Source: an uncultured delta proteobacterium (GTDB lineage: Bacteria; Myxococcota; UBA727; VGSZ01). From it: a stretch of DNA of 64,000 bases. Location: assembly GCA_963775425.1 (NCBI GenBank), contig CAVZJB010000008.1, positions 128,001 to 192,000 on the forward strand, read 5' to 3'. A model generated the notes under the pieces. It ran no database searches. It was not told where the DNA came from and saw nothing but the letters and a program-made list of their open reading frames with translations. Positions 9,910-40,936 of this stretch are shown here, piece by piece (the first letter of the stretch is position 1; each line of letters starts with the position of its first letter). A program made the translations under genes and the position numbers.

Positions 9910-10824
9910 TCAGCCCGCCGGGCAGACCGACGTGTCCGTGGGGCACGCGGTCGCCGTCGCAGGGTCCGCGCCGCAGAAGCTGAGCCCCGGCACGCACGTG
10001 GCGCCGGGCGTGGCGATGAAGCAGCCGGTGTTGGTGGCGCTGGTGGTGACGTCGCAGGTGCCACCGACGTCGGCGCAGTCGAAGAAGAAGGGCTGGCCGT
10101 CGCTGGCGCCGACAGTGACGAAGCAGCCGAGCAGGAAGCGGCTGCCCGAGCAGGCGCCGGCCGCGGTGACCTGGCCGTCGGCGCAGGCGAATCCGGCGCT
10201 CACGCACGCGGTGCCGTTGCCGGCGCTGTTCACCGCGCAGCCCGCCTGGAAGCCCGCGCAGGGCACGAGGACGTTCTGGGTGGTGTCGTTCGGGTCCTGG
10301 AACAGGCAGGACTGGCCGGCGGGGCGCAGGCAGTCCACGCCGTACTCGGGCGTCACCTGGCCGCACTGGGTGCCCGCGGGGAAGCCGAGCGCGCTGTCCG
10401 AGCAGTCCTGGGTCTGGAGCGTGTTCGTCGTCGTGTCGCAGAACTCCACGGTGTTGCCCGTGCACTGGCCCTGCACCGTGACGGTGCCGCAGCCCGGCGG
10501 CTCGCCTTCGCCTTCGCCCTCGCCCTCGCCGGGGCCGACGTCGCCCTCGCCCTCGCCCTCGCCCTCGCCGGGGTTCACGTCGCCTTCGCCCTCGCCTTCG
10601 CCGGTGTTGCTGTCGCGGACGCAGTCCCCGTCCTGGCAGACGTGGCCGACGTCGCAGTCGCGATCGTTCTCACACTCGACGCACGCGCCGTCGACGCAGA
10701 TCTTGCTCCCGTGGCAGTCGCCGTCGGAGGAGCAGCCGGCGCCGCCGAGGTTCAACAGATCGAGGCTGCACGCAGGGAGGACGCAGACGCCGGCGACGGC
10801 GGCGAGGACGAGAGAGGTCTTCAT
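9910..10824 (-). CDS. Cys-rich acidic lipoprotein with internal (GE)n tracts, paralog 1
   Basis: Signal peptide + LPAC lipobox; N-terminal CxxDxDC repeats; three GEGEGEGEG blocks; shared Cys-rich domain. Confidence 0.85.
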   Translation of the reverse strand: MKTSLVLAAVAGVCVLPACSLDLLNLGGAGCSSDGDCHGSKICVDGACVECENDRDCDVGHVCQDGDCVRDSNTGEGEGEGDVNPGEGEGEGEGDVGPGEGEGEGEGEPPGCGTVTVQGQCTGNTVEFCDTTTNTLQTQDCSDSALGFPAGTQCGQVTPEYGVDCLRPAGQSCLFQDPNDTTQNVLVPCAGFQAGCAVNSAGNGTACVSAGFACADGQVTAAGACSGSRFLLGCFVTVGASDGQPFFFDCADVGGTCDVTTSATNTGCFIATPGATCVPGLSFCGADPATATACPTDTSVCPAG

Positions 10825-10914
10825 GCGCGCTGTGTCGCACGCTCGTCGACGAAGGAAACCGGGCGCTGTGAGAGCTGGATCACTCGAAGAGCGGCTCCCT
10901 CGCGGCGGCGCGCT

Positions 10915-11664
10915 TCACTCGCCTTCGCCTTCGCCCTCGCCCTCGCCCTCGCCTTCGCCTTCGCCTTCGCCTTCGCTCGGGCACACGCCGCTGGCGGGGC
11001 AGCCGACGACGTCGTTTTCGCGGCCGCACAGCGTGAGCCCGGGCGTGCACGCCGCCCCGAACGGCGAGACGCAGCCGACGCCGGAGACGCAGGCGGCGTC
11101 GAAGGCGTCGCAGTCCTGGAACAGCGGCTGCCCGTCGACGGAGCCCGAGCCGGCCACGATCCCGTGGCACTCGAGCACGTACGAGGCGTTGTTTTGCCCG
11201 GAGCAGCCGAGGGTGTCCGCCGCGCCGCAGGTGAAGCTCCCCTCGACGCACTCGAAGGTCCCGACGCCCGTGTGCTCGCAGCCCGCGTCCGCGCCCTGGC
11301 AGAAGCCGAAGAAGCCGTCGTTGCCGCTGCCGACGGCGCAGCTCCCGCCCGCGGGCAGCGCACAATCGGCGCCCCAATTTCCGTTGATCTCCTGGCACCG
11401 AGCGCCGGTGCCCGTGTAGTCGGCGAGGTCGCCGGTGCCGCGGCAGTTCTGGGTGACGAGGACCTCGGCGAGGCACACCTGCACGACGTCGCCGGTGCAC
11501 GCCCCCTGCGTGGTGACGTCGCCGCACGTGGGCGCGGGGTCGCCCTCGCCCTCGCCCTCGCCTTCGCCCTCACCCTCCCCTTCGCCCTCGCCTTCGCCGG
11601 GGCAAGCCCCACCGGCGATGACGAGCGCGGCGACAAGACCACACGACAGGAAACCACGAAGCAT
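10915..11664 (-). CDS. Cys-rich acidic lipoprotein with N- and C-terminal (GE)n tracts, paralog 2
   Basis: MLRGFLSCGLVAALVIAGGAC then PGEGEG; shared Cys domain; ends in (GE)n. Confidence 0.85.
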   Translation of the reverse strand: MLRGFLSCGLVAALVIAGGACPGEGEGEGEGEGEGEGEGEGDPAPTCGDVTTQGACTGDVVQVCLAEVLVTQNCRGTGDLADYTGTGARCQEINGNWGADCALPAGGSCAVGSGNDGFFGFCQGADAGCEHTGVGTFECVEGSFTCGAADTLGCSGQNNASYVLECHGIVAGSGSVDGQPLFQDCDAFDAACVSGVGCVSPFGAACTPGLTLCGRENDVVGCPASGVCPSEGEGEGEGEGEGEGEGEGE

Positions 11665-11773
11665 CTGCGACACCCCCGGCCCGCGAGAGACGCAGTCTAG
11701 CGCGCCCGAAAACCGATTGCCGACCGCCCGGGCGCTCGCTGAACGCCCGCGGCGAAGGACGGCCCGGACAAGC

Positions 11774-11795
11774 AAAGGGCCCCTCGCGGGGCCCT
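11774..11795 (-). terminator. Probable intrinsic terminator after paralog 3
   Basis: AGGGCCCC-GCGA-GGGGCCCT-TT on the minus strand. Confidence 0.55.
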
Positions 11796-11820
11796 GTGCG
11801 CTCACGAATGCGTCAGGCGC

Positions 11821-12612
11821 TCACTCGCCTTCGCCTTCGCCTTCACCCTCGCCTTCGCCTTCGCCCTCGCCCTCGCCCTCGCCTTCGCCTTCGCCCTCAC
11901 CGGCGCTGTCGGGGCAGGTGCCGGTGTCGGGGCAGGCCACGGCGTCGTTGGCGTCGGTGCCGCAGGCGGTGACGCCAGGCGTGCAGGTCTGGGTGAAGGG
12001 CACGAGGCAGCCGACGGTGTCCGTGCAGGTGGAGCCGGCGAAGTCCGCGCAGTCCACGAGGAAGGGCATGCCGGTGCCGGCGTTGGTGGTCACGAAGCAG
12101 CCGAGCTGGAACGTGGTGCCGATGCAGGTGCCGTCATCGGTCTGCGTGCAGGCCGTAGCGTTGCCGACGCAGCTGAAGCTCGCGTCAGCGCCCTGCTTGC
12201 AGCCGGCGGTGTCGCCGCCCTCGCACAGGAGGTCGACCTCGTTGTCCGCGCCGCCGTTGAGCACGCAGGTGTCGCCGGCGGGCGCCACGCAGTCGACGCC
12301 GTAGTCGGGGTTCACTTCCTGGCAGGTGGCCTGGCTGCCGGTGAGGTCACCCTCGTCGCCGGTGCCCTGGCAGTCCTGCACGACGAGGCTGCCCTGGAGG
12401 CAGAACTTGAGGGTGTTGCCCTCGCAGACGCCGGCGAGGTCGATGGTGCCGCAGCCCGTGTCGCCTTCGCCCTCGCCCTCGCCCTCACCTTCGCCTTCGC
12501 CTTCGCCTTCGCCTTCGCCTTCGCCCTCCGAGGGCGGACAACCGGTCGCCGTAAAGATCGCGAGCCCGAAGGTGGTGGTCAGAAGAGCGGTCAAAAGTGC
12601 AGGGCGAAGCAT
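11821..12612 (-). CDS. Cys-rich acidic lipoprotein with N- and C-terminal (GE)n tracts, paralog 3
   Basis: MLRPALL...FTATGC lipobox; GGAGG RBS; shared Cys domain; ends in (GE)n. Confidence 0.87.
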   Translation of the reverse strand: MLRPALLTALLTTTFGLAIFTATGCPPSEGEGEGEGEGEGEGEGEGEGEGDTGCGTIDLAGVCEGNTLKFCLQGSLVVQDCQGTGDEGDLTGSQATCQEVNPDYGVDCVAPAGDTCVLNGGADNEVDLLCEGGDTAGCKQGADASFSCVGNATACTQTDDGTCIGTTFQLGCFVTTNAGTGMPFLVDCADFAGSTCTDTVGCLVPFTQTCTPGVTACGTDANDAVACPDTGTCPDSAGEGEGEGEGEGEGEGEGEGEGEGEGE

Positions 12613-12695
12613 GTGGGAGGCCTCCAATGGAGGGCTTCCTAACCCGCGATCTGGCGTTCGTCACGGACAATTCGCCCCGGGTCGGTCAAAAGACC

Positions 12696-13406
12696 TTACT
12701 CCCCTTCGCCCTCTCCTTCGCCTTCGCCCTCGCCTTCGCCTTCGCCGGCGGCGGCGGGGCAGGCGCCGTCGGCGGGGCAGGCGGTCGGGGCGTCGGGGTC
12801 GCCGCACTGGGTGAAGCCCGGGGTGCACGGCGCCTCGGGCTCCGCGATGCAGCCCCCGGGGGCCTGGCAGCTGGCGCCGAAGGAGGCGCAGTCGATGAGC
12901 GTGGGCTGCCCGGGGGTGTCGCCGGTGTCGCCGAGGCAGGTCTTCACGGCGCGATCGCCGATGCACTGGAAGTCGCTGGTGCAGCCCTCGTTGATCTGGA
13001 GGCAGAAGCCCGCGGTCGTCGACGTGATGACGCACGCGAAGCCGTCGCCGGCGCAGGGCAGGGCGCCGTCGGCGGCGTCGAAGCAGGAGGCGTCGGTGGG
13101 GACGCCGCAGTCGACGCCGTGGGCGTCGTTGACCACGAAGCACTGGGCGTCGTCGCGGACCGCGGCGCAGTCGAACTCGATGACGCCGCCGTCGGCGCAG
13201 AAGGACCCCGACGTCGCCGAGGTGCAGCTCCCTTGATCGGTCACGGCGCCGCAGGTGCCGTCGCCCTCGCCCTCGCCCTCGCCCTCGCCGGCGTCGCCCT
13301 CGCCCTCGCCCTCGCCGGCGTCGCCCTCGCCCTCGCCCTCGCCGCCTGGGGTCGGTGGGCACGCGGCGGCGAGCATGGTGACGACGAGGACGCAGAGGAG
13401 GCGCAT
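12696..13406 (-). CDS. Cys-rich acidic lipoprotein with N- and C-terminal (GE)n tracts, paralog 4
   Basis: MRLLCVLVVTMLAAAC lipobox; GEGEGEGDA blocks; TAACCT hexamer 7 nt upstream. Confidence 0.85.
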   Translation of the reverse strand: MRLLCVLVVTMLAAACPPTPGGEGEGEGDAGEGEGEGDAGEGEGEGEGDGTCGAVTDQGSCTSATSGSFCADGGVIEFDCAAVRDDAQCFVVNDAHGVDCGVPTDASCFDAADGALPCAGDGFACVITSTTAGFCLQINEGCTSDFQCIGDRAVKTCLGDTGDTPGQPTLIDCASFGASCQAPGGCIAEPEAPCTPGFTQCGDPDAPTACPADGACPAAAGEGEGEGEGEGEGEGE

Positions 13407-13485
13407 GCCGGGGAGGTTAGCCCCTTGCCCGACGGCGCGCGAATCGGCATCACGCCACATTCCACCGTTTTCCAAGAGGGCAGAG

Positions 13486-14382
13486 ATGGCTGAGATCACG
13501 GCGTCGATGGTGAAGGAGCTCCGCGAAAAGACCAACGCGGGGATGATGGACTGTAAGAAGGCGCTCACGGCCACGGAGGGCAACTTCGAAGCCGCCGTGA
13601 ACTGGCTGCGCGAAAAGGGGCTCGCCGCCGTCGCCAAGAAGGCGGGGCGTGTGGCGGCCGAAGGGCTCGTCGGCGTGGTCAACGACGGCGGCGTCGCGGC
13701 CATGGTGGAGGTGAACTGCGAGACGGACTTCGTCGCCAAGAACCCCGAGTTCCAGGCGTTCGTCTCCGACCTCGCGGGCGCGGTGGCCAAGGCGGCCCCG
13801 AAGGACCTCGCGTCGTTCCAGGAAAAGGAGAAGGACAAGCTCGCCGAGAAGATCGCCAAGATCGGCGAGAACATGACCATCCGCCGCTTCGCGCGGGCGG
13901 AGGGCGTGCTCGGCAGCTACGTGCACATGGGTGGCAGCATCGGCGTCATCGTCGAGCTCGACGTCAAGGACGCCGACAAGGCGGCCTCGGAGACCGTCAA
14001 GCAGCTCGCCCGCGACATCGCCATGCAGGTGGCGGCGTCGAGCCCGCAGTGGCTGCGCCGGGACGAGGCCGACCCGAAGATCCTCGACAACGAGCGGGCG
14101 GTGGCGCGCGAGAAGGCCAAGCAGGACGGCAAGCCCGAGAAGATCCTCGACAAGATCGTCGAGGGGCAGGTGAACAAGTTCCTCCAGGAGAACTGCCTGC
14201 TCGAGCAGGCCTTCGTGAAGGACGACAAGCTCACCGTGCAAAAGCACGTCGACAAGCAGGCCAAGGAGCTCGGCACCACCATCGCGGTGAAGGCCATGCA
14301 CCGCTTCAAGGTCGGCGAGGGCATCGAGAAGAAGGCCGACGACTTCGCGGCTGAAGTCGCGAAGATGGCTGGTACAAACTGA
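13486..14382 (+). CDS. tsf: Translation elongation factor Ts
   Basis: MAEITASMVKELREKTNAGMMDCKKAL and EVNCETDFVAKN signatures. Confidence 0.98.
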   Translation: MAEITASMVKELREKTNAGMMDCKKALTATEGNFEAAVNWLREKGLAAVAKKAGRVAAEGLVGVVNDGGVAAMVEVNCETDFVAKNPEFQAFVSDLAGAVAKAAPKDLASFQEKEKDKLAEKIAKIGENMTIRRFARAEGVLGSYVHMGGSIGVIVELDVKDADKAASETVKQLARDIAMQVAASSPQWLRRDEADPKILDNERAVAREKAKQDGKPEKILDKIVEGQVNKFLQENCLLEQAFVKDDKLTVQKHVDKQAKELGTTIAVKAMHRFKVGEGIEKKADDFAAEVAKMAGTN

Positions 14383-14386
14383 CGGC

Positions 14387-15676
14387 GTGACCCCGCTGCT
14401 CCTCGCCCTCGCCCTCGCCTCCCCTCCCGGGGACGCCGGCGCGGGCGGGGCGCCGCCCTACGCGGACGCGGCGCGCGCGGCCGCTGGCGGCTCGTCGTCG
14501 TCGTCGTCGCCGCCGTCGCCGGCGCCGTCGTCGGCGCCGCCAGGAGCGGGCGACGAGGTCATCCCGCCGGCGCGGCTGGTGTACGTCCCGGGCCGGTTCG
14601 CCGGCGTGTGCCCCACCGAGGTCGAGGTGCAAGAGGGCGTGACCCGGCGCCTCGGACGCTCCCCGTTTTCCGAGCCCGCCGAGCGCGTCATCGTGCTCGC
14701 CCTCGAGGGCGACGCACACGCCGCGCGCCAACACCACGCGAACGGCGACGCCGTCGAGGGGGCAGACGGCGACGGCGACCGTGGCGGCGACCGTGGCGGC
14801 GGCGACGGCGGCGTTGGCGACGGCCGCGCCACGGACGGCGACCGTGGCGGCGTCGGCGAGACGCCCGCCCGCGCGCGCACCGAGATGTTCGACGCGGAGA
14901 TGACCAGCCTCGGGGCGCGCACCCTCGAGTCAAGCGACGGCTGCCGCGATCTCGTCGAGGCCGCCGAGCTCGCGATCTCCATCGCCCTCGCCCCCGGGCT
15001 TGCGCTCGCGCCGCCGCCGGAGCTGCCCAAGCCCATCGAGCCTCGCGGCGACCCCCCGCCCGCGCCCGCGGCGGCCCCGGACACGACGCCGGCGGCCGCT
15101 CCCTCCGATCGCTCGAACGCAGGCGCGCACGCGTGGCTGCCCGAGGGCGCCAGGCTCATGCTCGGCATCGGCCTCAACGCGTCGTTGCTCCTCGGGCCCG
15201 AGTCGGCGGCGGGGGCGAACGTGAGCGCCGCGCTCCGCTTCGACCAGCTGGAGGTGCGCCTCGAGCGACGCGAGCACGTGCCCGGCCTGGACACGCTGCT
15301 CCCCGCCGGGCCCGTGCTCCACGGGGCCGGCGTCTACACCCTGGCGGGCTGCGGGCACCTGCCGCTCTTCGCGCTCGTCGGCGACGGCGACCGCACGGAG
15401 CTCAGCGCGTGCGCGACGGCGTCGGCGGGCTCGGTCTGGGGCATCGGCAACATCACCAACGTCGGCCCCTACGTCGGCGGCTCCCCCTACGCCGGCGCCG
15501 GCGGCCGCGTCGCCGCAGGCTGGAGCGGCAAGGACCTGACGTCGCTGCGCCTGTGGACGCAGGTGGAGGCGAACCTCGTGGAGCCGCAGTTCGCGGTGTT
15601 GAACGGCACGCCCCCCTGGAAGCAGGACGCGCCGGTGAACGTCACCTTCGGCGTCACCTACGAGATCCCGTACTGA
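14387..15676 (+). CDS. Secreted/outer-membrane hypothetical protein of a type seen next to myxobacterial ECF cassettes
   Basis: Signal peptide; CP..EV..GV.RRLG and C.DL..A..LAI.IAL motifs; Pro-rich linker; beta-rich C-terminus ending in an aromatic residue. Confidence 0.6.
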   Translation: MTPLLLALALASPPGDAGAGGAPPYADAARAAAGGSSSSSSPPSPAPSSAPPGAGDEVIPPARLVYVPGRFAGVCPTEVEVQEGVTRRLGRSPFSEPAERVIVLALEGDAHAARQHHANGDAVEGADGDGDRGGDRGGGDGGVGDGRATDGDRGGVGETPARARTEMFDAEMTSLGARTLESSDGCRDLVEAAELAISIALAPGLALAPPPELPKPIEPRGDPPPAPAAAPDTTPAAAPSDRSNAGAHAWLPEGARLMLGIGLNASLLLGPESAAGANVSAALRFDQLEVRLERREHVPGLDTLLPAGPVLHGAGVYTLAGCGHLPLFALVGDGDRTELSACATASAGSVWGIGNITNVGPYVGGSPYAGAGGRVAAGWSGKDLTSLRLWTQVEANLVEPQFAVLNGTPPWKQDAPVNVTFGVTYEIPY

Positions 15677-15726
15677 GCGGATGACCCGGGCGTTCGTCGC
15701 CGGACCCGGCGACCCGATCGAGCGCG

Positions 15727-15836
15727 GCCGCTCCCTCCGGTCGCCGATCAGCGCGCGGCCGCTCCCTCCGGTCGCCGATCAGCGCCGCTCCCTCCGGTCG
15801 CCGATCGAGCGCGGCCGCTCCCTCCGGTCGCCGATC
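15727..15836. repeat. Four tandem copies of GCCGCTCCCTCCGGTCGCCGATC
   Basis: Copies start at 15727, 15758, 15784 and 15814 with 3-8-nt linkers, between convergent stop codons. Confidence 0.9.
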
Positions 15837-15841
15837 AGCGC

Positions 15842-16714
15842 TTAGCGGGAGAGCGCCGCGTCCACGGCGCCGAGGAACAGGCTCGCGGGGTAGCGCTCGT
15901 GGAACGCGTCCGCGGTCTTGTGCGCCTCCGCCGTGCGGCCGAGCTTGGCCAGGGCCATCACCGTCAGCGCCTCGCGCTCCTCGACGAGCGCGCCGTTCGG
16001 ATAGCGCCTGCGGTGGGCCTCGAGCGCGATCAGGGCGGCCCCGCCGTCGCCGCGGCCGACGGCGGCGCGCGCGTCGTCGAGGATGGTGCGCTCGCCGGCG
16101 AGCCGCGCGGCCTTCTCGGCGGGCGTCTCCACGGCCGCGGGCGCCGCGGCGTGCGTGAGGCCTTCGGTGCCGTCGCCCCCGTCGCCCACCTCGGAGGGCG
16201 CGGGGCGCGTGTGCCGCGTGGCGACGTGGCGGGGTTGCGGCTCCGGCACCGGCTCCGGCTTGTTGCCGAGGACGGAAGGGTCGAACGCCGACGCCGTGGC
16301 CGCCGCGGGATCGTCGACGACGACGGCCGCCGGCTTGCGGTCGTCGTCGTCGCGCTGCGCGAGGTAGACGCCGGTGCCCGCGGTGCCGGCCATGGCGGCG
16401 ACGAGGGCGAAGGCCAGGCCCTTGGCGAGCGCGCCGCCGGTGGCGGTCACCGCGGCCCCGCTCGCTGCGCCCGCAGCGCCTCCCGCGACGGCGCCTCCTG
16501 CGACGGCGCCTCCCCCGGCGGCGGCGGACGTCGCGCCGGCGGCGCCCTTGGCGGCGAGCGCGGCCTTGCCGGCGCCCGCCCCCGTGAGGCCGACGCCGAT
16601 GGAGGCGGCGAGCGCGGCGTGGACGCGCTCCTTGGCGCCCGCCGGCGGGCCGTCGCGGCGGCGCTCGGCGTCGAAGAGGTCGCGCAGATCGGGGGACAGC
16701 TCGTCGTCGATCAC
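15842..16714 (-). CDS. Putative membrane-anchored anti-sigma factor with C-terminal TPR-like helices
   Basis: Overlaps the ECF stop codon; Ala/Gly-rich N-terminus, one TM segment, C-terminal YP.G.L.EERE.L..L..LGR..EA motif. Confidence 0.7.
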   Translation of the reverse strand: MIDDELSPDLRDLFDAERRRDGPPAGAKERVHAALAASIGVGLTGAGAGKAALAAKGAAGATSAAAGGGAVAGGAVAGGAAGAASGAAVTATGGALAKGLAFALVAAMAGTAGTGVYLAQRDDDDRKPAAVVVDDPAAATASAFDPSVLGNKPEPVPEPQPRHVATRHTRPAPSEVGDGGDGTEGLTHAAAPAAVETPAEKAARLAGERTILDDARAAVGRGDGGAALIALEAHRRRYPNGALVEEREALTVMALAKLGRTAEAHKTADAFHERYPASLFLGAVDAALSR

Positions 16715-17406: not shown

Positions 17407-17497
17407 GGGAGGTCGGACGTAGCAGCCCCGTGCGGCAATCACACGGGGGCACGGATCTGTCCGGGAGGCGCCAACCGCGCTGCAGAACCATGAACCC

Positions 17498-18241
17498 ATG
17501 AGGTCCTGCATGCTGCCCCGCTCCCTGCTGCTCCTGTCCCTCGCGCTGCCGCTCGCCGGCACCACGGCGTGCCGCTACTACGGCTTCGGCCCCGGCGACT
17601 CCGCGGCCTGCCTCGAAGACGACGACGGCGACGGCCTGTCCAACTGCGCCGAGCGGCAGTGCGGGACCGATCCGAACAACCCCGACACCAACGGCGACGG
17701 CATCACCGACGGCAACGAGGACAACGACGGCGACGGCGCCAGCAACCAGGACGAGGTCGACGCCGGCACCGATCCCAACGATCCCTCGAGCTGCCCGACC
17801 CCGTCCGAGGGCGAAGGCGAGGGCGACGCCGCCGGCGAGGGCGAGGGCGAGGGCGACGCCGCCGAAGGCGAGGGCGAAGGCGAAGGCGACACCGGCGCCG
17901 TCGACAGCGACGGCGACGGCCGCACCGACGACCAGGAGGCCGAGCGCGGCACCGATCCGAACAACCCCGACACTGACGGCGACGGCTTCACCGACGGCCA
18001 GGAGTACGACTGCGGCAGCTCGCCCCTCGACCCGTACATCACCTGCCCCGTCACCGACAGCGACGGCGACGGCTTCGCCGACGACGACGAGGTCGCCCGC
18101 GGCACCGACCCCAACAACCCCGACACCGACGGCGACGGCGAGACCGACAAGCAGGAGGTCGACTGCGGCAGCTCGCCCCTCGACCCCTACTTCACCTGCG
18201 AGAACCTGCCGAACCCCGGCCCGAACCCCGGTTGCCCGTAA
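17498..18241 (+). CDS. Lipoprotein with bacterial thrombospondin type-3-like Ca-binding repeats and (GE)n tracts
   Basis: Signal peptide + TTAC; repeated DSDGDG..D..E...GTDPNNPDTDGDG; three GEGEGEGD blocks; start may be 17510. Confidence 0.85.
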   Translation: MRSCMLPRSLLLLSLALPLAGTTACRYYGFGPGDSAACLEDDDGDGLSNCAERQCGTDPNNPDTNGDGITDGNEDNDGDGASNQDEVDAGTDPNDPSSCPTPSEGEGEGDAAGEGEGEGDAAEGEGEGEGDTGAVDSDGDGRTDDQEAERGTDPNNPDTDGDGFTDGQEYDCGSSPLDPYITCPVTDSDGDGFADDDEVARGTDPNNPDTDGDGETDKQEVDCGSSPLDPYFTCENLPNPGPNPGCP

Positions 18242-18464
18242 GGCTGGCGCGCTTCGCGCGGGGCCCTCCGGGCCCCCCACGCGCTTCGCGCGCGGGCCCC
18301 CCCGGCTTGCTGGGGTGCCTTGATGGGCCCGCTCGCGGTGCTCGCGCTCGCGCGAGAGGCGTACGCCCCGCCGAAGATGACGCGGCGCCAACGGCGCGGC
18401 GGAGCCGGCCTCGCAGCGGACTGCGGCGGCCGGCTCCGCCGCGCTCCCTCTTGGGGGCTTGAGC

Positions 18465-19010: not shown

Positions 19011-19052
19011 CGTGAGCCGATATCGCGCGCCGCTCGCGGGCGCGTCGCGGCT

Positions 19053-19325: not shown

Positions 19326-19382
19326 GAAGCCCCTCGCGGACAAAACCCTACGCAGACGCGCCGCCGCGCATTACATAGCAGC

Positions 19383-22203: not shown

Positions 22204-22213
22204 TGATCCCTGC

Positions 22214-23340: not shown

Positions 23341-23625
23341 CTATTCGCCTTCGCCTTCGCCTTCGCCTTCTCCTTCTCCTTCTCCTTCGCCTTCGCCTTC
23401 GCCTTCGCCTTCGCCTTCGCCCTCTCCTTCTCCTTCGCCTTCGCCTTCGCCCTCTCCTTCGCCTTCACCCTCGCCTTCGCCTTCACCCTCGCCTTCGCCT
23501 TCGCCCTCGCCTTCGCCTTCGCCTTCGCCCTCGCCTTCGCCTTCGCCTTCGCAGCCCACGACGGTGGTCGTCAGACCGGTGACGAGCAATCCCGCGAAGA
23601 CTGCCGCCAATGCCACACGCATCAT
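23341..23625 (-). CDS. Lipoprotein consisting only of a signal peptide and Cys-Glu-(Gly-Glu)34
   Basis: AGGAGG RBS; MMRVALAAVFAGLLVTGLTTTVVGC followed by 69 alternating E/G codons (23344-23550) and TAG. Confidence 0.8.
   Translation of the reverse strand: MMRVALAAVFAGLLVTGLTTTVVGCEGEGEGEGEGEGEGEGEGEGEGEGEGEGEGEGEGEGEGEGEGEGEGEGEGEGEGEGEGEGEGEGEGEGE
23344..23550 (-). repeat. Hexanucleotide repeat (GGN GAR) encoding poly-(Gly-Glu)
   Basis: 207 bp of GAA/GAG alternating with GGC/GGT/GGA. Confidence 0.95.
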
Positions 23626-23799: not shown

Positions 23800-24729
23800 T
23801 CACTCGCACACGTACGACGTGCCGTCGAACGAGGTCGTGCCGTTGCAGTCACCCGCGGCGTTGCAGCCACAGATGTGATCGTTGCCGCAGACGTCGCCGC
23901 CGGCGGAGCCGGTGCACTCGTCGTCAGAGGCGCAGCCGCAGCTGCCGTTGTCGGTGTTGCACACCGAGGGCGCGGTGCCGGTGGCACCACACTCGCCGTC
24001 GTCGGTGCAGCCGCACGTGTGCGTCGCCGTGTAGCAGGTGGTCTGCGCGCCGGTCGCACAATCCGCGTCGGCGAGGCACTGCACGCACTGCCCGGAGGAC
24101 GTGTCGCACTTCAGCGTGCCGCAGTCGGCGTCGGTGGTGCACGCCGGGCTGTTGATCTCACAGAGGCTGTCCGCGTTGCAGGTGGAGTCCACGAAGGTGC
24201 AGACGTCGACGTCGGCCCCCGTGATGTCCTTCAGCGTGGTCAGGGTGCCTGCCGCGCAGGCGCCCGCGGTCGCCTCGAGGCTGTCACAACGGCCCTGGGC
24301 TCCGCTGGCGCCCGTCTGGTCGAGGTCGATGCAGTGCGTGTTCGGCGTGGTGCAATCCGCGTTCGCGGTGCACGCCGTGGTGCCCACGAAGCGCGCGGCA
24401 CAATCGTTGTTTCCGCCGCAGGTGTCCGCGGCGCAGCGGCTCGCGGTCGTGTCGCAGTGGAAGAAGACGTTGGAGCCGCCGATCTCGCAGTCGGCGTCGG
24501 CCGTGCACGACTCCTGGCAGATGGCCTCGCCTTCGCCTTCGCCTTCGCCCTCTCCTTCGCCTTCGCCTTCGCCCTCGCCCTCACCCTCGCCTTCGCCTTC
24601 GCCTTCGCCTTCGCCCTCGCCTTCGCCTTCGCCTTCACCTTCGCCTTCGCCTTCGCAGCCCGTGAAGGCCGTGGTCAGACCGATGACGAACACACTCGCC
24701 AGGATTCCCGTCAATGCAACGCGCAACAT
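23800..24729 (-). CDS. Cys-rich acidic lipoprotein with N-terminal Glu-(Gly-Glu)21 linker
   Basis: AAGGAGG RBS; MLRVALTGILASVFVIGLTTAFTGC; GE tract 24526-24654; many CxxDxDC repeats. Confidence 0.88.
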   Translation of the reverse strand: MLRVALTGILASVFVIGLTTAFTGCEGEGEGEGEGEGEGEGEGEGEGEGEGEGEGEGEGEGEGEGEGEAICQESCTADADCEIGGSNVFFHCDTTASRCAADTCGGNNDCAARFVGTTACTANADCTTPNTHCIDLDQTGASGAQGRCDSLEATAGACAAGTLTTLKDITGADVDVCTFVDSTCNADSLCEINSPACTTDADCGTLKCDTSSGQCVQCLADADCATGAQTTCYTATHTCGCTDDGECGATGTAPSVCNTDNGSCGCASDDECTGSAGGDVCGNDHICGCNAAGDCNGTTSFDGTSYVCE

Positions 24730-28262: not shown

Positions 28263-28369
28263 AACGCCGAACACCGTCATGCCTCCCCGCTCGCCGATCA
28301 CGCTGAGCCGGGTCCGAACGCTCGCGGCAACCTGATCGGTGTTTTAGGCGGTCGACGACGAGCCGGCGC

Positions 28370-29620: not shown

Positions 29621-29678
29621 GTGCGCGCCACGAGGTCACACGACGAGCGATCGGGCAATGCGGCATCGGGCGCCGGCC

Positions 29679-31426: not shown

Positions 31427-31559
31427 CGACCGCTTCTACCGCTTGTGCGCGAGGACGGAAGACGAAAGTGCCCTGCGTGGGGCGCGCCGTGCCTCTTGGC
31501 TCGTTGTCGGGGTGACCCGAGGCATGTGCAAACACGACGCGGCGCAGTACAGATCTTTC

Positions 31560-32816: not shown

Positions 32817-32819
32817 GCC

Positions 32820-33545
32820 ATGCGCTGGTTGTTGCTCAGAGGCCTGGCGCGTGAACAGCGGCACTTCGGGTCGTTCCCGCAGACGTTCAGCGCGCGCGTC
32901 GGCGACGACGCGGTCACCATCGATCTGCCCGGGTTCGGCACGGAGCACGAGCGCGACAGCCCGCTCACCATCAGCGGCATCGTCGACGACGTCCGCGGCC
33001 GCTTCCGGCGCGACGCGGGCCCGTGGTCCATCTTCGCCATCTCCCTCGGGGGCATGGTCGCGCTCGACTGGGCCGCGCGGTACCCCGGCGACTTCGAGCG
33101 CGTCGTCGTCGCCAACACCAGCGCCGCCGACCTGTCGCGTCCGTGGGAGCGCTTCTCGACGAAGGTCTGGCCGCGCCTGCCGAGGATGGTCACGGGCACG
33201 CTGCCCGTCGCGCGCGAGCGCGCGGTCCTCGACATCACGAGCAACTCCACCGTCGTCGACAAGGACGCCCTCGCCCGCACGTGGGCCGGCTACTTCGCCG
33301 AGCGCCCGCCGCGTCGCCGCGCCTTCGCCTGCCAGCTCGCGGCCGCGACGCGCTCGCGCCTGCCCAAGCGCATCGACGCGAACGTCCTCGTGCTGACGTC
33401 CCGCGCCGACCGCCTCGTGTCGTGGCGCTGCTCCGAGAAGATCGCGCGCGCGCTCGGCGCGCCGCTGTGCGTCCACGATGCGGCGGGGCACGATCTCTCC
33501 CTCGACGCGCCCGAATGGGTCTGCGACAAGATCGCCTCGTCATGA
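32820..33545 (+). CDS. Alpha/beta hydrolase
   Basis: LLRGL, IDLPG.G, nucleophile motif AISLGG, D.LV and GHD. Confidence 0.88.
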   Translation: MRWLLLRGLAREQRHFGSFPQTFSARVGDDAVTIDLPGFGTEHERDSPLTISGIVDDVRGRFRRDAGPWSIFAISLGGMVALDWAARYPGDFERVVVANTSAADLSRPWERFSTKVWPRLPRMVTGTLPVARERAVLDITSNSTVVDKDALARTWAGYFAERPPRRRAFACQLAAATRSRLPKRIDANVLVLTSRADRLVSWRCSEKIARALGAPLCVHDAAGHDLSLDAPEWVCDKIASS

Positions 33546-34132
33546 CGACCGCCGCCGCCTTCGCCCTCGCGCTCACCGCCGCCCTGCCCGGCAAGGCGCC
33601 GGCGCAGCTCGATCACGGCGACATCGTCGTCACCACCCGCGTCGTCGCCGGCAGCCCCATCCCCGAGGCCACGGTGCGCGCGGTGATCGACGCGCCGCCG
33701 GAGAAGGTGTGGTCCGTGGTGCAGGACTGCGCCAACTACAAGACCACCATGCCGAACATCGCCGCCAGCGTGGAGGTGTCGCGCGAGAAGCCGGTCGCCG
33801 CCGACGGGCCCGACGCCGCCGAGGTGCGCACCTGCCGCGTCGTCGCCGACCTGCCGTTTCCGTTCGCCGATCTCACGAGCGTCACGCGCGGCGTGCACCG
33901 CATCGTCCCCGGCAAGAGCTGGTCGCGCACATGGCAGCTCGTCTCCGGCGACTACGTGACCAACGAGGGGCACTGGCTCGTGAAGCCCTGGGGCGAAGAC
34001 GGCAAGCAATCGCTCGTCGAGTACCGCATCCACGCCGTGCCCAAGGTGTCCCTCCCCGACTGGCTCGTGTCCGCCATCGAGGAGGGCAAGATGCCCGAGA
34101 TGATGAAGAACCTGCGCAAGCGAGTCCGCTGA
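33542..34132 (+). CDS. SRPBCC/polyketide-cyclase (START-like) protein
   Basis: AVIDAPPEKVWSVV.D..NY...MP motif; ATGA overlap with the upstream gene. Confidence 0.8.
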   Translation: MTTAAAFALALTAALPGKAPAQLDHGDIVVTTRVVAGSPIPEATVRAVIDAPPEKVWSVVQDCANYKTTMPNIAASVEVSREKPVAADGPDAAEVRTCRVVADLPFPFADLTSVTRGVHRIVPGKSWSRTWQLVSGDYVTNEGHWLVKPWGEDGKQSLVEYRIHAVPKVSLPDWLVSAIEEGKMPEMMKNLRKRVR

Positions 34133-34191
34133 GCATTCGCGTGCGCGTCACCTTTGCGCGCAGCGGCGGTCCGCGCGACCCGGTGGACCAC

Positions 34192-34246
34192 TGCCAATCT
34201 GGCAAAGGTCGTCGCCGCGGGCCGCCGGCGGTCTGCCAACGTGGCA
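34192..34246. promoter_or_regulatory. Two palindromic sites TGCCA-N3-TGGCA, candidate activator binding sites
   Basis: TGCCAATCTGGCA 34192-34204 and TGCCAACGTGGCA 34234-34246, 42 bp apart. Confidence 0.55.
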
Positions 34247-34311
34247 GCAGATCAGGCCGGCCGGCACGCGCATCTGCTTGATCTTGCGCGACTTTTTCGG
34301 AATGTTGCGGC

Positions 34312-34327
34312 CGGCTCGCGCTTTGCT
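34312..34327 (+). promoter_or_regulatory. Putative sigma54 promoter of the T2SS operon
   Basis: CGGCTCGCGCTTTGCT matches TGGCACG-N4-TTGCW with correct GG-N10-GC spacing. Confidence 0.5.
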
Positions 34328-34389
34328 TCGGGGAGGCGCGGTCTGGCCGGCGGCAGGAGCCGCGGGCGAGCGGGTGTCCGAGGAGAGCA

Positions 34390-35430
34390 ATGCGTCACGC
34401 AGTCGAGTCGTTCTTCAAGCGCCGCTTCTACGTCGTGCACCTGCTGCTGCTGGCGGTGGCGGCGGTGCTGTGCGCGCGCACCACCACGGCGGTGGCGGGC
34501 CACTTCGTCGCCGAGCGCATCAAGGAGAAGGCCGGCGCGAACAAGCCGCACGCCCGCGTGCCTCCGCCGCGCGTCGGACCTGCGCGCGACTTCAATCGCG
34601 TCTCCGAGGAGAACATCTTCGACGGTAAGCGCGAGGTGGTGGCCACGCAGGCGGTCGCGCCCGTCGACACCGGGTCCGAGCACGACGCCAACGAGTGCGA
34701 AGGGGCGCCGGCGACCACGCTGCGCCTGCGCCTGGTGGGCACGGTGGTGTTCAGCGAGCAGGAGAGCTCGGTGGCGTCCATCGTCGACGAGAGCCAGGGC
34801 TCGCGGGCGGAGGCCTCGATGTACTCCATCAACGACTGCGACGACGACGCCGCCGCCGCCGTCGACGACGAGGACCCCGACGCCAAGCTCGCCGCCAAGC
34901 CGGCGCCGTGCAGCCGCGTCGGCGACAGCGCCGTGCTCAAGCGCATCGAGCCCGAGACCGTGTGCATCTGGAACGACAGCGAGCACCGGATGGAGTCGCT
35001 CGACATCGCCGCCAAGGCCGCGCCGCGCGCACCTCTCGCGCGCGCCTCGCGCGCGCCGCCCCGGCGACGCGACGACAATCTCGGCGCCAGCATCCACAAG
35101 ACCGGCGACAACAGCTACGAGGTTGGCCAGTCCGAGGTGGACAAGGCGCTCAACAACCTCGCCCAGCTCTCGACGCAGGCGCGCATCGTGCCCGCGTTCG
35201 AGGGCGGAAAGACCGTCGGCTTCAAGCTCTTCTCCATTCGGCCGGGCTCGCTGTACTCCAAGGTCGGCCTGCAAAACGGCGACGTCATCACCCGCATCAA
35301 CGGCTACGAGATGACGAGCCCCGAAAAGGGCCTCGAGATCTACACCAAGCTCAAGGACTCCAAGGCCGTCACCGTCGACCTCAAGCGCCGCGGGAAGCCG
35401 CTGTCCCTCGACTACAACATCGTCCAATAG
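34390..35430 (+). CDS. gspC: Type II secretion protein GspC (TM-HR-PDZ)
   Basis: N-terminal TM, LRLVGTV HR domain, PDZ GFKLFSIRPGSLY..GLQNGDVI..ING; first gene of the gsp cluster. Confidence 0.9.
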   Translation: MRHAVESFFKRRFYVVHLLLLAVAAVLCARTTTAVAGHFVAERIKEKAGANKPHARVPPPRVGPARDFNRVSEENIFDGKREVVATQAVAPVDTGSEHDANECEGAPATTLRLRLVGTVVFSEQESSVASIVDESQGSRAEASMYSINDCDDDAAAAVDDEDPDAKLAAKPAPCSRVGDSAVLKRIEPETVCIWNDSEHRMESLDIAAKAAPRAPLARASRAPPRRRDDNLGASIHKTGDNSYEVGQSEVDKALNNLAQLSTQARIVPAFEGGKTVGFKLFSIRPGSLYSKVGLQNGDVITRINGYEMTSPEKGLEIYTKLKDSKAVTVDLKRRGKPLSLDYNIVQ

Positions 35431-35439
35431 GGACCCCGC

Positions 35440-35874
35440 ATGCTCAGCGTCGCCCCTCGTCTGCCCCTGCTCCCCGTCGTCGCCGCCGCGTGCGTCGTCG
35501 CGCTCGCCGTGGCTTTGACGTGCGGGCACGGCAGCGCCCCGGCGGCGGAGGAGCCGCACTTCGCGGTCTCTCTCGCGCGCTTCGATGCCGTGCTCGCCCA
35601 TCCCCGCGAGGCCGCCGGCGACTCGCGCGCCGTGCCCGCGGTCGAGGGCGGGCGCGTCGTGGGGCTCAAGCTGTTCTCCATCCGGCCGGGCTCCACGCTC
35701 GACGAGCTCGGGCTGAACAACGGCGACGTCGTCCTGCGCATCAACGGCCACGAGCTGACGAGCGCCGAAAAGACCCTCGAGCTCTACACGTCGCTCCCGG
35801 ACGCCAGCTCCATCGTCGTCGACATCGAGCGGCGCGGCGCGCCCCTGGCCTTGCACTACGACATCGTGCCCTGA
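35440..35874 (+). CDS. Short GspC-like protein (TM/lipobox + PDZ only)
   Basis: GLKLFSIRPGSTL..LGLNNGDVV.RING, closely similar to the GspC PDZ domain; no HR domain. Confidence 0.8.
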   Translation: MLSVAPRLPLLPVVAAACVVALAVALTCGHGSAPAAEEPHFAVSLARFDAVLAHPREAAGDSRAVPAVEGGRVVGLKLFSIRPGSTLDELGLNNGDVVLRINGHELTSAEKTLELYTSLPDASSIVVDIERRGAPLALHYDIVP

Positions 35875-35882
35875 GGAAACGC

Positions 35883-36230
35883 ATGGAAGCCTTGTCCCTC
35901 CGCCTGCCGCTCCTCTCCGTCGTCGCCGCCGGCGCCGTCGCGGCGCTGCCCATCGTCGCCGTCGTCGCCATCCGCGCGCCGTCGCCCGTCGAGGCGGTGG
36001 CGCCGCCGTCGCCGGACACGCCGGCGCTCGCGCCGCGCGGCTTCCGGCTCGAGAGCGTTCCGCCGGGCTCCTTCGCCGCGCGCCTCGGTCTGAAGAGCGG
36101 GGACGTCGTCGTCTCCGTCGACGGCGCCCCCTTCGCGGGCCCCGAGGCCATCCTGCAGGACAGCGGCGGCGAGCTCGTCATCGACATCATTCGCAACGGT
36201 CAGCACGGCACGCTCCATCACACCCTTTGA
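35883..36230 (+). CDS. Second short GspC-like PDZ protein
   Basis: N-terminus RLPLL.VVAA shared with the previous gene; GFRLESVPPGSFAARLGLKSGDVVVSVDG PDZ. Confidence 0.75.
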   Translation: MEALSLRLPLLSVVAAGAVAALPIVAVVAIRAPSPVEAVAPPSPDTPALAPRGFRLESVPPGSFAARLGLKSGDVVVSVDGAPFAGPEAILQDSGGELVIDIIRNGQHGTLHHTL

Positions 36231-36235
36231 GAATC

Positions 36236-39076
36236 ATGAACCGCATTCTTTGTCTCTTCGTCGTCACCATGCTCGTCGCGCCCGCCACCTCCGCGCTCAC
36301 GCAGGAGGAGAGCGAGCTGCCCGACGGGGGCCTCAAGTACTCCCCGAACAACCCGGGCGCGTTCCGCACCGTGGAGGACGCCAAGGCGTTCGCCGCCAAG
36401 AAGCGCAAGGAGCAGTACGACAAGGCCAAGGCCAAGGCCATCGCCAAGGCCAAGGACCGCATCAAGGTGATGCAGGACCTCGCCGCGGGCGGCGACCCGC
36501 AGGCGGCTGAGGACCTCGCGCAGGCGGACCCCAAGGTGCCCGCGGCGGCCACGTCGTCGGCGAGCCGCGCCCCCGCCGCCAACGGCGGCAAGAGCAGCGG
36601 CAAGGTCGACCTCTCGAGGTGCAAGCCGCAGAAGGGGCGGCTGTCGTTCAACTTCGACAAGGCCGCCATCAACGAGGTCCTCGATCAGATCTCGCGCATC
36701 AAGTGCATGAACTTCATCCTGTCCGACGCGGTGAAGGGCAAAAACGACATCACCATCGTGTCGCGCAGCCCCGTCACCGTCGGCCAGGCGTACGCGGCGT
36801 TCCTGTCGGCCCTCGAGGCCAACGGCATGGCCCTCGTGCCCGCCGGCGCCTTCTGGAAGGTCGTCGAGCGCAAGGACTCCGCCAAGACCACCGTGCCCAT
36901 GTACGAGGTCAAGGACGGCGTGCTCACGCGCATGACGCCCGACGAGAAGGCCTCGGGTGAGATGCCCAACTCCGACGCCAACGTCACGCTGCTCTACGAG
37001 ATCAAGTACGCGCAGAAGGAGATCGTGCAGAACCTCGTGCGCAACTTGATGTCCAAGAACGCCGACCTGCAGACGCCCGCCGGCAACCTCTTCATCCTCA
37101 CGGACTCCGGCAGCAACATCCTGCGCATCATGGAGGTCCTCGACAAGATCGACGTCGAGGGCACGTCCAACCGGCTCAACACCGTCACCCTCAAGTGGGC
37201 CGACGCCCAGGGCATGGCGCAGAAGCTCAGCGACATCTTCGGCGTCACCCCGAACAAGGCCAAGGTGGCCGCGTCGACGTCGCGGGCCGTGCGCCGCGGC
37301 AAGGTCCCGCCTCGCCCGGGCATGCCCGAGGCCGAGGTCGACACGGGCGACGAGGAGGGCGGCGACATCACCGACACGCCCATCGAGAAGATCATCCCCG
37401 ACGACCGCACCAACCAGCTCCTGGTCATCTCGTCGCCCAAGGCGTTCGAGAAGGTGCTCGAGGTGCTGCGGCTCCTCGACGTGCCGGGCACGGAGTTCGG
37501 CAACGGCGAGCTCAAGATGTGGGTGGTCCCGCTCGCCAACAGCGACGCCCAGAAGGCGGCGAGCACGCTGTCGTCGTTGGCGTCGGGAGCGTCGGCGCGG
37601 CCCAACAACTCCGCGGCCAAGGGCGGCGTCAAGGCCAAGCAGGCGCAGAAGGCGGCGTCCTTGTTCGAGGGCGAGGTGAAGGTCACCGCCGACGAGAGCA
37701 CCAACTCGCTGGTGGTGGTGGCGTCCGCGCGCGACTTCCGCGCGCTCAAGAGCGTCATCGACAAGCTCGACGTGCGCCGGCCGCAGGTCTTCGTCGAGGC
37801 GGCCATCATGGAGGTCGGCATCACGCAGGACCGCTCCGTGGGCCTGAACGCCTACGCGTCGACGCCGGTGCCCGGCCTCGGCAGCACGCCGGGCATCGGG
37901 ATCATCGCCAACGAGGGCGGCCGGCAGCTCTTCCAGGACTCGGCAAAGGTGGTCGCCGGCCAGCAGGTGCTCCAGGAGCTGGCCGCGTCCAACCGCCTCG
38001 ACGCCACCAACATCCAGCCCGTGGTGGACGCCGCCACCTCGATCTCGAGCTTGCTTGGCTTCCTTTCGTTCGTAGGACCTTCGGTCGAGGTCATCCCCGG
38101 CTTGTCCCTGCCGTCGGTGGGCGCCGTGTTGAACCTCCTGCAGTCGAACACCAACGTGGACATCCTCTCTACGCCGCACATCATGACCACCGACAACGAG
38201 AAGGCCGAGATCTCCGTCGGTGAGCGCGTCCCCGTGGTGCGCGGCATCGCGCCCGTGTCGGGCGCGGGCGCGCTCGGCTTCGGCGGCCTGCAGCAGGTGG
38301 CCTACGAGGACGTGAAGCTCAAGTTCTCCATCACGCCGCACGTCAACAGCAACGGCGAGGTGCGCATCGAGCTCGAGCAGGAGGTCAGCGATCTCGGCGG
38401 GCAGGTGAGCGTCGGCAACGGCCTCACGCAGCCCATCATCACCAACCGCAACGTGAAGAACACGGTGGTCGCCAAGGACCAGCAGACCATCGCCATCGCG
38501 GGCCTCATCAGCGACAGGAAGAGCGACACCGAGAGCAAGATCCCGTTCTTCGGCGACATCCCCATCGTGGGTTGGCTCTTCAAGACCTGGAAGGACAACA
38601 AGGCCAAGAGCAACCTGCTCATCGTGCTCACGCCGTACATCGTGCGTGACGACGAGGACTTCCGGAAGATCTACGAGCGCAAGATGGCCGAGCGGAAGGC
38701 CTTCGTGGAGGCGTACTTCTCCGACGGCCGCATCTACAACCCGTACATCGACTACGACAAGAAGACCGGCCCGCTGGGATCCCTGGTCCACACCATCGAC
38801 TACGAGATGGAGAAATTGGAAAACGGCGGCAAGGGTCACGGCGAGGAGCTGATCGGGCCCGACACCGGCGTCCGCACACGCTCCGTCGGCGAGGGCGAGG
38901 GCGAGGGCGAGGGCGATCAGACGCACGCCGTGCCGCCGGGACCGCCGGAGACCGACGAGGACGGCGGCGGGGAGACCGCGCCGCCGCCGCCCGGTGGGAC
39001 GTCGGACTCGCCGCCCGAGACGCCCCCGGACACCAGCTCGCCGGAGACGCCGCCGCCTCCGCCCCCCGAGAAGTGA
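36236..39076 (+). CDS. gspD: Type II secretion secretin GspD with N-terminal extension and GE/Pro-rich C-terminal tail
   Basis: N0 FNFDKA.I; N-domain repeats; QVFVEAAIMEV, ILSTPHI.T.DN..A.I.VG, KIPFFGDIP.VGWLFK, LLIVLTP. Confidence 0.96.
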   Translation: MNRILCLFVVTMLVAPATSALTQEESELPDGGLKYSPNNPGAFRTVEDAKAFAAKKRKEQYDKAKAKAIAKAKDRIKVMQDLAAGGDPQAAEDLAQADPKVPAAATSSASRAPAANGGKSSGKVDLSRCKPQKGRLSFNFDKAAINEVLDQISRIKCMNFILSDAVKGKNDITIVSRSPVTVGQAYAAFLSALEANGMALVPAGAFWKVVERKDSAKTTVPMYEVKDGVLTRMTPDEKASGEMPNSDANVTLLYEIKYAQKEIVQNLVRNLMSKNADLQTPAGNLFILTDSGSNILRIMEVLDKIDVEGTSNRLNTVTLKWADAQGMAQKLSDIFGVTPNKAKVAASTSRAVRRGKVPPRPGMPEAEVDTGDEEGGDITDTPIEKIIPDDRTNQLLVISSPKAFEKVLEVLRLLDVPGTEFGNGELKMWVVPLANSDAQKAASTLSSLASGASARPNNSAAKGGVKAKQAQKAASLFEGEVKVTADESTNSLVVVASARDFRALKSVIDKLDVRRPQVFVEAAIMEVGITQDRSVGLNAYASTPVPGLGSTPGIGIIANEGGRQLFQDSAKVVAGQQVLQELAASNRLDATNIQPVVDAATSISSLLGFLSFVGPSVEVIPGLSLPSVGAVLNLLQSNTNVDILSTPHIMTTDNEKAEISVGERVPVVRGIAPVSGAGALGFGGLQQVAYEDVKLKFSITPHVNSNGEVRIELEQEVSDLGGQVSVGNGLTQPIITNRNVKNTVVAKDQQTIAIAGLISDRKSDTESKIPFFGDIPIVGWLFKTWKDNKAKSNLLIVLTPYIVRDDEDFRKIYERKMAERKAFVEAYFSDGRIYNPYIDYDKKTGPLGSLVHTIDYEMEKLENGGKGHGEELIGPDTGVRTRSVGEGEGEGEGDQTHAVPPGPPETDEDGGGETAPPPPGGTSDSPPETPPDTSSPETPPPPPPEK

Positions 39077-39079
39077 ACC

Positions 39080-40936
<1,857 letters not shown>

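Follow-up and report, generated by a model that had tools for sequence, protein, structure and literature searches.

Gly-Glu repeat tracts as candidate lipid-anchor stalks of probably surface-exposed proteins in an uncultured lineage of Myxococcota

Introduction

How Gram-negative bacteria choose which of their lipoproteins face outward is still an open question outside a few phyla. In Escherichia coli, about half of the outer-membrane lipoproteins are reported to have an unstructured linker after the lipidated Cys (bioRxiv 10.1101/2021.01.05.425367). In Bacteroidota, the lipoprotein export signal (LES), C-X-K-(D/E)2-X, has been described as short and position-critical, with K or Q and then (D/E)2 at +2 to +6 after the Cys (PMC5080379). 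In Myxococcus, the T2SS (type II secretion system) is the reported surface route of lipid-anchored MYXO-CTERM proteins, and a disordered region is described next to their sorting motif (PMC11980579). Here, we describe tracts of alternating Gly and Glu, (GE)n, in seven predicted lipoproteins (P0001-P0007) and in the T2SS secretin GspD of an uncultured member of Myxococcota. The stretch of DNA that was analysed, called the window throughout, has 64,000 nucleotides (G000:C8:128001-192000, where G000 is assembly GCA_963775425.1, of 8.26 Mb and 72% G+C).

Our results suggest that (GE)n is a stalk specific to this lineage, disordered and polyanionic, next to the lipid anchor of proteins that are probably exposed on the cell surface, a reading to which we give a probability of roughly 0.68. 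What is new relative to known lipoprotein tethers is the Gly-Glu dipeptide form and its use before C-terminal anchors as well. The disordered N-terminal linkers of outer-membrane lipoproteins are alike in being unstructured segments placed right after the lipidated Cys and before the folded domain; unlike them, the GE linker is a near-pure acidic dipeptide repeat of up to ~95 residues, occurs in about one fifth of lipobox proteins and also precedes a C-terminal anchor. With the LES it shares negative charge near the +1 Cys of surface-exposed lipoproteins, whereas GE tracts are long, stand at variable distance from the Cys, are without Lys and belong to another phylum with a likely different export route. 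The MYXO-CTERM/myxosortase/T2SS pathway described for Myxococcus xanthus (bioRxiv 10.1101/2023.06.07.544157) has its likeness in the MYXO-CTERM matches, the myxosortase core and the complete T2SS of G000. GE is outside the definition of that system, whereas in the family of G000 the disordered region next to the motif is often (GE)n; a further difference is that no TraA orthologue was found in G000 (best score of 23 bits against a cut-off of 750).

In our literature searches, no publication on Gly-Glu repeat tethers in bacteria came up. In eukaryotes, ORF15 of RPGR also contains a long Glu-Gly dipeptide repeat coded by purine-rich repeats, and this region is glutamylated; unlike the proteins described here, to which it has no homology, RPGR is cytoplasmic. 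The tracts give a sequence-only handle for listing the probable surface proteome of uncultured Myxococcota.

Results

Tracts across the genome

The assembly is a draft of metagenome type with 18 contigs, in which exact repeat numbers may be imprecise. A crude codon log-odds script called 6655 genes, and all N-termini were classed by the same simple rules for a lipobox or a signal peptidase I (SPI) signal, which are heuristic and overcall (950 'lipobox' proteins). G000 contains 501 (GGNGAR)>=3 tracts, the longest with 49 repeats, in about 270 proteins and on all contigs. Of these tracts, 432 are in frame 0 of called genes, and 249 of the 270 tracts with n>=6 lie in open reading frames (ORFs) whose non-repeat part has a third-position G+C content (GC3) of at least 0.85 in the GE frame. 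This is beyond chance, since a control pattern read backwards has 0 matches in G000 against 2633 overlapping matches to (GGNGAR)6. GE is also the only expanded dipeptide of this genome, with 279 tracts of at least 5 units compared to 4 for the next dipeptide.

The initial annotation proposed a genome-wide count of these repeats in exported proteins, and the count bore out its expectation: tracts are near-confined to exported proteins, with a strong enrichment in lipoproteins. They were found in 185 of 950 lipobox-class, 64 of 1667 SPI-class and 19 of 3886 no-signal proteins (odds ratio 49, p 2.5e-113), and at least 14 of those 19 have a visibly hydrophobic, signal-like N-terminus and are therefore start-site or rule failures. 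Checking the whole window likewise found no cytoplasmic protein with a tract, as had been claimed; the sole further (GGCGAG)3 there, at 14402-14419, is antisense to a plus-strand gene, where it is read as Leu-Ala. In total, 8344 GE-tract residues are distributed over about 270 exported proteins (about 4% of the proteome). By blastp the 268 carriers group into 189 clusters, with 14 proteins in the largest, and by this clustering the tract appears as a generic module carried on many unrelated domains.

Position relative to the lipid anchor

In 217 of the 268 carriers the tract adjoins a lipid anchor, where it comes just after a lipobox Cys at the N-terminus or just before a MYXO-CTERM motif at the C-terminus. 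The earlier view that the tracts cannot act as linkers does not hold for these 217, in which they lie between the lipid-anchor Cys and the folded part. The tract region is at most 60 residues past the signal Cys or cleavage site in 193 carriers (median length of the region 28 residues, interquartile range 16-44, maximum 94), and in 24 it is at most 85 residues upstream of a MYXO-CTERM-like end. Internal tracts only were found in 41 carriers, and 16-17 proteins have a free C-terminal GE tail (16 of the 268, six of them with an N-terminal tether too).

Among the 185 lipobox carriers, the first tract begins less than 50 residues past the Cys in 155. Only 16 begin within 4 residues of it, which does not agree with an LES; Pro is the commonest residue at +2 (30%), and the residues that are frequent from +2 to +7 do not include Lys. 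A second peak of the Cys-to-tract distance at 30-39 residues (54 of 185) is due to a recurrent 22-residue Cys module that precedes the tract, with the spacing C-x2-D-x-D-C-x2-G-x2-C-x2-G-x-C (in P0001 at about 10603-10770). A local hidden Markov model finds this module in 71 proteins of G000, and in 60 of them it starts at most 25 residues past the signal Cys. A GE tract follows this N-terminal module within 25 residues in 49 of the 60, while in the other 11 the module is followed mostly by more copies of itself, or by Asp-Ala-Gly or poly-Pro linkers. Only sub-threshold matches were obtained for the module, to DUF7107, TIGR04201 and the TraA Cys-rich stalk. Together, these features make up a stereotyped N-terminal cassette of lipobox Cys, Cys module, acidic tract and variable head.

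At the other end of the protein, 43 matches in G000 reach the cut-off of TIGR03901 (MYXO-CTERM: C-terminal Cys motif, transmembrane helix and Arg cluster), and in 15-16 of them (GE)>=3 stands just upstream of the Cys motif. With tracts before the MYXO-CTERM Cys and after the lipobox Cys, the tract therefore flanks a lipid-modified Cys at either protein end. The myxosortase core (Mrt, NF040914) is at G000:C16:1167191-1167502, with 102.1 bits against a cut-off of 100.

Carriers in the window

All eight ORFs translate as the initial annotation claimed and every tract was confirmed; among its coordinates, the starts were corrected to ~11664 (P0002), 12612 (P0003), 13406 (P0004), 23625 (P0006) and 24729 (P0007). 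In translation, each of P0001-P0007 has a hydrophobic signal with a lipobox Cys at its end. In P0002, P0003, P0004, P0006 and P0007 the (GE)n tract comes 0-8 residues past that Cys, and P0002, P0003 and P0004 have an additional free (GE)8-13 tail at the extreme C-terminus. The seven genes are as follows.

9910..10824, minus strand: P0001, lipoprotein with two small Cys modules, then GE tracts (10501-10530, 10543-10569, 10582-10602) and an 18-Cys domain.
10915..11664, minus strand: P0002, lipobox Cys, (GE)9.5 tether (11542-11598), 18-Cys domain and free (GE)9.5 C-terminal tail (10918-10974).
11821..12612, minus strand: P0003, lipobox Cys, (GE)11 tether (12463-12528), 18-Cys domain and free (GE)13 C-terminal tail (11824-11901).
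12696..13406, minus strand: P0004, lipobox Cys, three short GE tracts (13263-13343), 18-Cys domain and free (GE)8 C-terminal tail (12699-12746).
17498..18241, plus strand: P0005, lipoprotein with six bacterial TSP3 (Ca-binding type) repeats and three short GE tracts (17807-17887) between repeats.
23341..23625, minus strand: P0006, signal peptide, lipobox Cys, (EG)34 and stop (tract within 23344-23550).
23800..24729, minus strand: P0007, lipobox Cys, immediately (EG)21 (24526-24654), then a Cys-rich domain with a weak TIGR04201 match.

P0001 is without a C-terminal GE tail and has a weak DUF7107 match. P0006 is a tandem paralogue of P0007 that has been truncated: in the relative G001 the P0007-type gene is present as two full-length copies in tandem, and no domain remnant was found downstream of P0006. 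None of the GE proteins of the window has a TIGR03901 match, and no MYXO-CTERM remnant was found behind their stops in any frame.

The 18-Cys domain family

P0001-P0004 share a core domain of ~180 residues with 18 invariant Cys (alignments A1, A2). In an AlphaFold2 model of P0003, the one protein modelled, the core is all-beta with a predicted local distance difference test score (pLDDT) of 80-97, while the GE tracts have a pLDDT of 39-60 and no secondary structure; GE tracts are thus predicted to be disordered. The same order of lipobox, GE, domain and free GE tail recurs in the orthologues of G002, G004 and G006, and those in G001, G005 and G010 have GE, domain, GE and then a MYXO-CTERM-like end (with an SPI signal in G005 and G010; the G001 copy is in a longer ORF in which no signal was read). 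Tract position is conserved in the orthologues of four genera, and the orthologue in G017 has Asp-Ala-Gly-type tracts at both ends.

A word search found no homologues of the P0003 core; when 1.84 billion representatives were searched with a profile, 319 members of the family came up. Among the best 149 of the 319, 89 have a lipobox (loose rule), 47 a MYXO-CTERM-like end, 15 a (GE)>=3 tract and 1 a (GD)>=3 tract, and several of the lipobox forms have acidic C-terminal tails of other sequence. By these sequences, the free C-terminal tail is a recurring feature of the lipobox form, with a lineage-specific sequence; it may be either a relic of an anchor switch or of use on its own. The domain has no match in Pfam or NCBIfam, and for its fold the best hit of Foldseek against the PDB has an E of 0.31 and a wide VIA-align search gave Z <= 3.1. 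Several small chitin-binding (CBM14-like) domains were among the tied weak VIA-align rows; the similarity is non-significant, and no fold was assigned.

Domains, composition and probable location of the carriers

In a Pfam scan of a random 60 of the 268 carriers, 32 had an informative match and 28 had none or only an artefactual one to TrAA12. The carrier domains include C-type lectin, VWA, TSP3, cadherin-like, NHL, FG-GAP, PA14, beta-helix, TIG, LamG and DUF4215 domains, as well as alpha-amylase, purple acid phosphatase, esterase, copper monooxygenase, amidase, CAP and cytochrome c. The match of many GE proteins to Pfam PF22807 (TrAA12) was rejected as a low-complexity artefact that maps onto the tract itself. 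On the GE tract alone this family scores E 1e-5 to 1e-11, sometimes above the cut-off, and automatic annotation could mislabel such proteins.

The mature proteins had been described as rich in Asp, Glu and Cys and nearly free of Lys and Arg. With tracts removed, Cys and Lys/Arg follow this description genome-wide: median Cys is 4.0% in GE lipoproteins against 1.6% in other lipobox proteins (p 3e-28) and median Lys plus Arg is 3.9% against 7.7% (p 9e-44). The acidic part of the description does not extend beyond the tracts, since Asp plus Glu outside them is 13.8% against 13.6%. The idea of a disulfide-rich, Ca-binding surface coat finds support for Ca binding in P0005 alone, by its TSP3 repeats (Pfam TSP3_bac, E 1.3e-39).

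Gliding adhesins related to CglD give an indication of location. The four ORFs of G000 above the CglD cut-off (NF033765) are all GE-tethered lipoproteins:

G000:C12:136007-142006 and C16:1176362-1190024: four CglD-like (gliding adhesin family) ORFs, one match with an in-frame TGA.

In M. xanthus, proteinase K shaving is reported to show CglD exposed on the surface (bioRxiv 10.1101/2023.10.19.562135). No GE tract was found in any of 47 canonical envelope proteins (24 OmpA-domain proteins of the Pal/OmpA type, 1 BamD, 13 RND adaptors and 9 outer-membrane factors), an absence that as a class distinction from canonical periplasmic lipoproteins is suggestive only. The carriers appear to be a class of their own, which by homology to M. 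xanthus proteins is probably surface-exposed.

Codon use and tract length

At the DNA level, the 174 tracts with at least 10 repeats have a median length of 16 units, while their longest perfect run of hexamers has a median of 4. Adjacent identical units are modestly in excess (1219 of 3087 compared to 1095 +/- 22 in shuffles). GC3 in the tracts is 0.63, GGA and GGT are raised, and GAA is 50% of the Glu codons against 9% in training genes, a share that grows with tract length. That Gly and Glu persist through scrambled synonymous sites is an argument that the tracts are maintained as protein, and they offer a clean example of selection acting on a dipeptide repeat at the protein level, with a codon choice sharply off the genome norm. 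The codon bias may come from selection against slippage or G-quadruplexes (G4), or from mutational bias. A canonical G4 motif is present in 80 of the 174 tracts, compared to 75 with their own units shuffled and 173 under genome codon usage, and avoidance of G4 by the arrangement of units is thus not supported beyond codon choice. The codon use of the tracts removes most G4 motifs and most perfect repeats. A phase-variable contingency microsatellite, a perfect short repeat that shifts the frame or affects a promoter as it changes length, does not fit either, given that the 6-nt unit is always in frame and interrupted by synonymous changes.

Tract length varies freely among paralogues and orthologues; the C-terminal tails of P0003 orthologues have 4-26 repeats, and the tandem P0007 paralogues of G001 have 6 and 32.

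Distribution in the lineage and a Gly-Asp counterpart

(GGNGAR)6 is massively present in each of the family's 10 other genomes and in G017, from a neighbouring family, and it is absent or nearly so in the other 19 relatives. Across the phylum (301 genomes), an abundance of (GGNGAR)8 is confined to the family of G000 (9 of 9) and G017; elsewhere it is limited to sporadic loci (f14 1/123, f19 0/42). G013, a GE-poor genome of the same order, has 5378 overlapping (GD)6 matches and 3 overlapping (GE)6 matches, compared to 4 (GD)6 matches in G000. In all five sampled loci of G013 (L186-L190) a lipobox is followed by (GD)n, and two of the five have the same Cys module. A sequence-specific signal is not supported, as this sister lineage has Gly-Asp in the same cassette and homologues elsewhere have Asp-Ala-Gly-type tracts. 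This natural exchange of GE, GD and other tracts bears on the question of passive stalks versus sorting determinants.

The type II secretion operon

The window also has a complete T2SS operon, from 34390 to about 50029, with gspC, D, E, F, G, minor pseudopilins, K, L and M:

34390-35430, plus strand: gspC, with T2SSC plus PDZ domains (Pfam).
35440-35874 and 35883-36230, plus strand: two small PDZ genes (Pfam; the first small PDZ protein is below the curated cut-off).
36236..39076, plus strand: gspD secretin, with N0, Secretin_N and Secretin domains (Pfam).
39080..50029, plus strand: gspE, gspF, gspG, three pseudopilin genes, gspK, PilM-like gspL, gspM and a possible gspN (Pfam; GspK, GspC and GspL-like scores near or below cut-offs, GspN without a supporting match).

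The C-terminal tail of GspD is disordered, acidic and Pro-rich and contains (GE)4.5 at 38888-38914. At its other end, residues about 45-130 (36236-36700) are a long Lys/Ala-rich extension before N0, probably helical or disordered.

The initial annotation had joined the tracts and this operon into one locus-level system, which the genomic comparison does not sustain. GE genes are on all contigs. With 7 GE ORFs plus P0006, the window ranks in the top 1.3% of 898 windows (the genome averages 2.1 per 64 kb), an excess that is due to a four-gene tandem array and a tandem pair. The supposed tag shared with the secretin, (GE)>=3, is in the tail of GspD in G000 only, 1 of 11 complete tails (a count that leaves out G007, where a contig end truncates the tail, and G009 and G010, which were not resolved); all 11 tails are acidic, Pro-rich and variable. 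Co-occurrence with the T2SS fails as well, with GspD in 29 of 31 relatives and (GE)6 tracts in only 13 of them, and so does the link to extra PDZ genes: tblastn within about 1.5 kb of gspD gave a second PDZ match for 4 of the GE-rich relatives but for none of 5 others that are GE-rich, nor for G012 or G013. Export of many GE proteins by the T2SS is plausible by the MYXO-CTERM precedent of Myxococcus, but nothing ties the GE tract itself to this system. The T2SS of the window is an ordinary housekeeping system and no dedicated partner of the GE proteins, and a false lead is thereby removed.

Discussion

The reading that we favor is that this lineage uses (GE)n as its disordered spacer between the folded part of exported proteins and their lipid-modified Cys. 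The tract would be a flexible and strongly anionic stalk, typically of ~28 residues and up to ~95, that could hold binding or hydrolytic heads off the membrane, probably on the cell surface. Such a stalk would likely be repelled by the anionic outer leaflet and would be poor in protease sites, and its carriers would reach the surface by routes general to myxobacteria, among them the T2SS in the case of MYXO-CTERM proteins. Several points weigh against the spacer. Free C-terminal tails and the GE-only lipoprotein P0006 cannot be spacers, ~80% of the lipobox proteins have no tract, so that the tether is not universal, and the confinement of tracts to a compositionally distinct class would also fit a role in sorting. 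Surface location is drawn from homology to proteins of M. xanthus. The absence from the 47 canonical envelope proteins is a weak point, as 13 of the 47 are lipobox-class, in which ~2.5 carriers are expected and 0 were seen (p about 0.06); the signal-peptide classes are heuristic and overcalled, and repeat numbers from this type of assembly may be off.

It is possible, though unlikely, that the acidic Gly-Glu or Gly-Asp tract near the lipid-modified Cys is itself a sorting signal, a charge-based analogue of the LES that diverts anchored proteins to the surface through the T2SS. Tracts adjoin the lipidated Cys at either terminus, they are confined to the Cys-rich and Lys/Arg-poor class, all four CglD-like adhesins and about a third of the MYXO-CTERM proteins carry them, and the 47 canonical envelope proteins do not; in addition, T2SS-dependent surface display of lipid-anchored proteins is reported in Myxococcus (PMC11980579) and acidic residues after the Cys are described as an export signal in Bacteroidota (PMC5080379). 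The Bacteroidota signal, however, is strictly position-dependent, whereas the distance from Cys to tract goes from 2 to at least 50 residues, often with a folded Cys module between the two, and tract length is unconstrained. Moreover, no (GE)>=3 is close by in 27-28 of the 43 MYXO-CTERM proteins, such tracts are missing from Myxococcota that share the T2SS and MYXO-CTERM system (1 of 123 genomes with them in family f14, 0 of 42 in f19), the GspD tag is not conserved and the extra PDZ genes do not track GE. A looser form of the idea, in which charge and disorder are what is read, as GE or GD and at either protein end, would turn the free tails and GE-only lipoproteins into minimal carriers, and we consider it improbable too.

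Decidedly unlikely in our judgment is that the polyanion has a function of its own, with tracts and free tails forming a hydrated, cation-binding (Ca2+ or metal) surface brush and tethering being secondary. The free C-terminal tails are on 16-17 unrelated small lipoproteins, 18-Cys lipobox forms of other lineages also end in acidic low-complexity tails, 8344 tract residues in all are spread over about 270 exported proteins, and several carriers have Ca-binding TSP3 repeats. Yet cation binding by the tracts is only hypothetical, and most tracts are proximal to the anchor and not distal. In the P0002-P0004 family, the C-terminal tract is the linker to the MYXO-CTERM anchor in three relatives, and the free tails may therefore be leftovers of an anchor switch. 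As for the tracts being a neutral by-product, that is, in-frame hexanucleotide microsatellites that slippage lengthens and that the disordered parts of exported proteins simply tolerate, we regard it as highly improbable. Repeat number does differ widely among orthologues and paralogues, and the modest over-representation of adjacent identical hexamers (1219/3087) fits such an origin, but the repeats are imperfect (median perfect run of 4 in 16 units), with Gly and Glu kept while synonymous sites are scrambled. The tracts are also always in one frame, near-absent from cytoplasmic proteins (19/3886, mostly misclassified) and conserved in position in orthologues of four genera, and the sister lineage has the same architecture with GD.

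Other features of the genome

Downstream of the T2SS operon, at 52613-56794 on the minus strand, the window codes for an exported protein of 1393 residues with ~15 Big_9/cadherin-like repeats and without a GE tract. On another contig, at G000:C12:432322-444500, about seven lipoprotein genes stand in tandem; all have a GE tether of 10-13 repeats and a lower GC3 (about 0.80-0.85).

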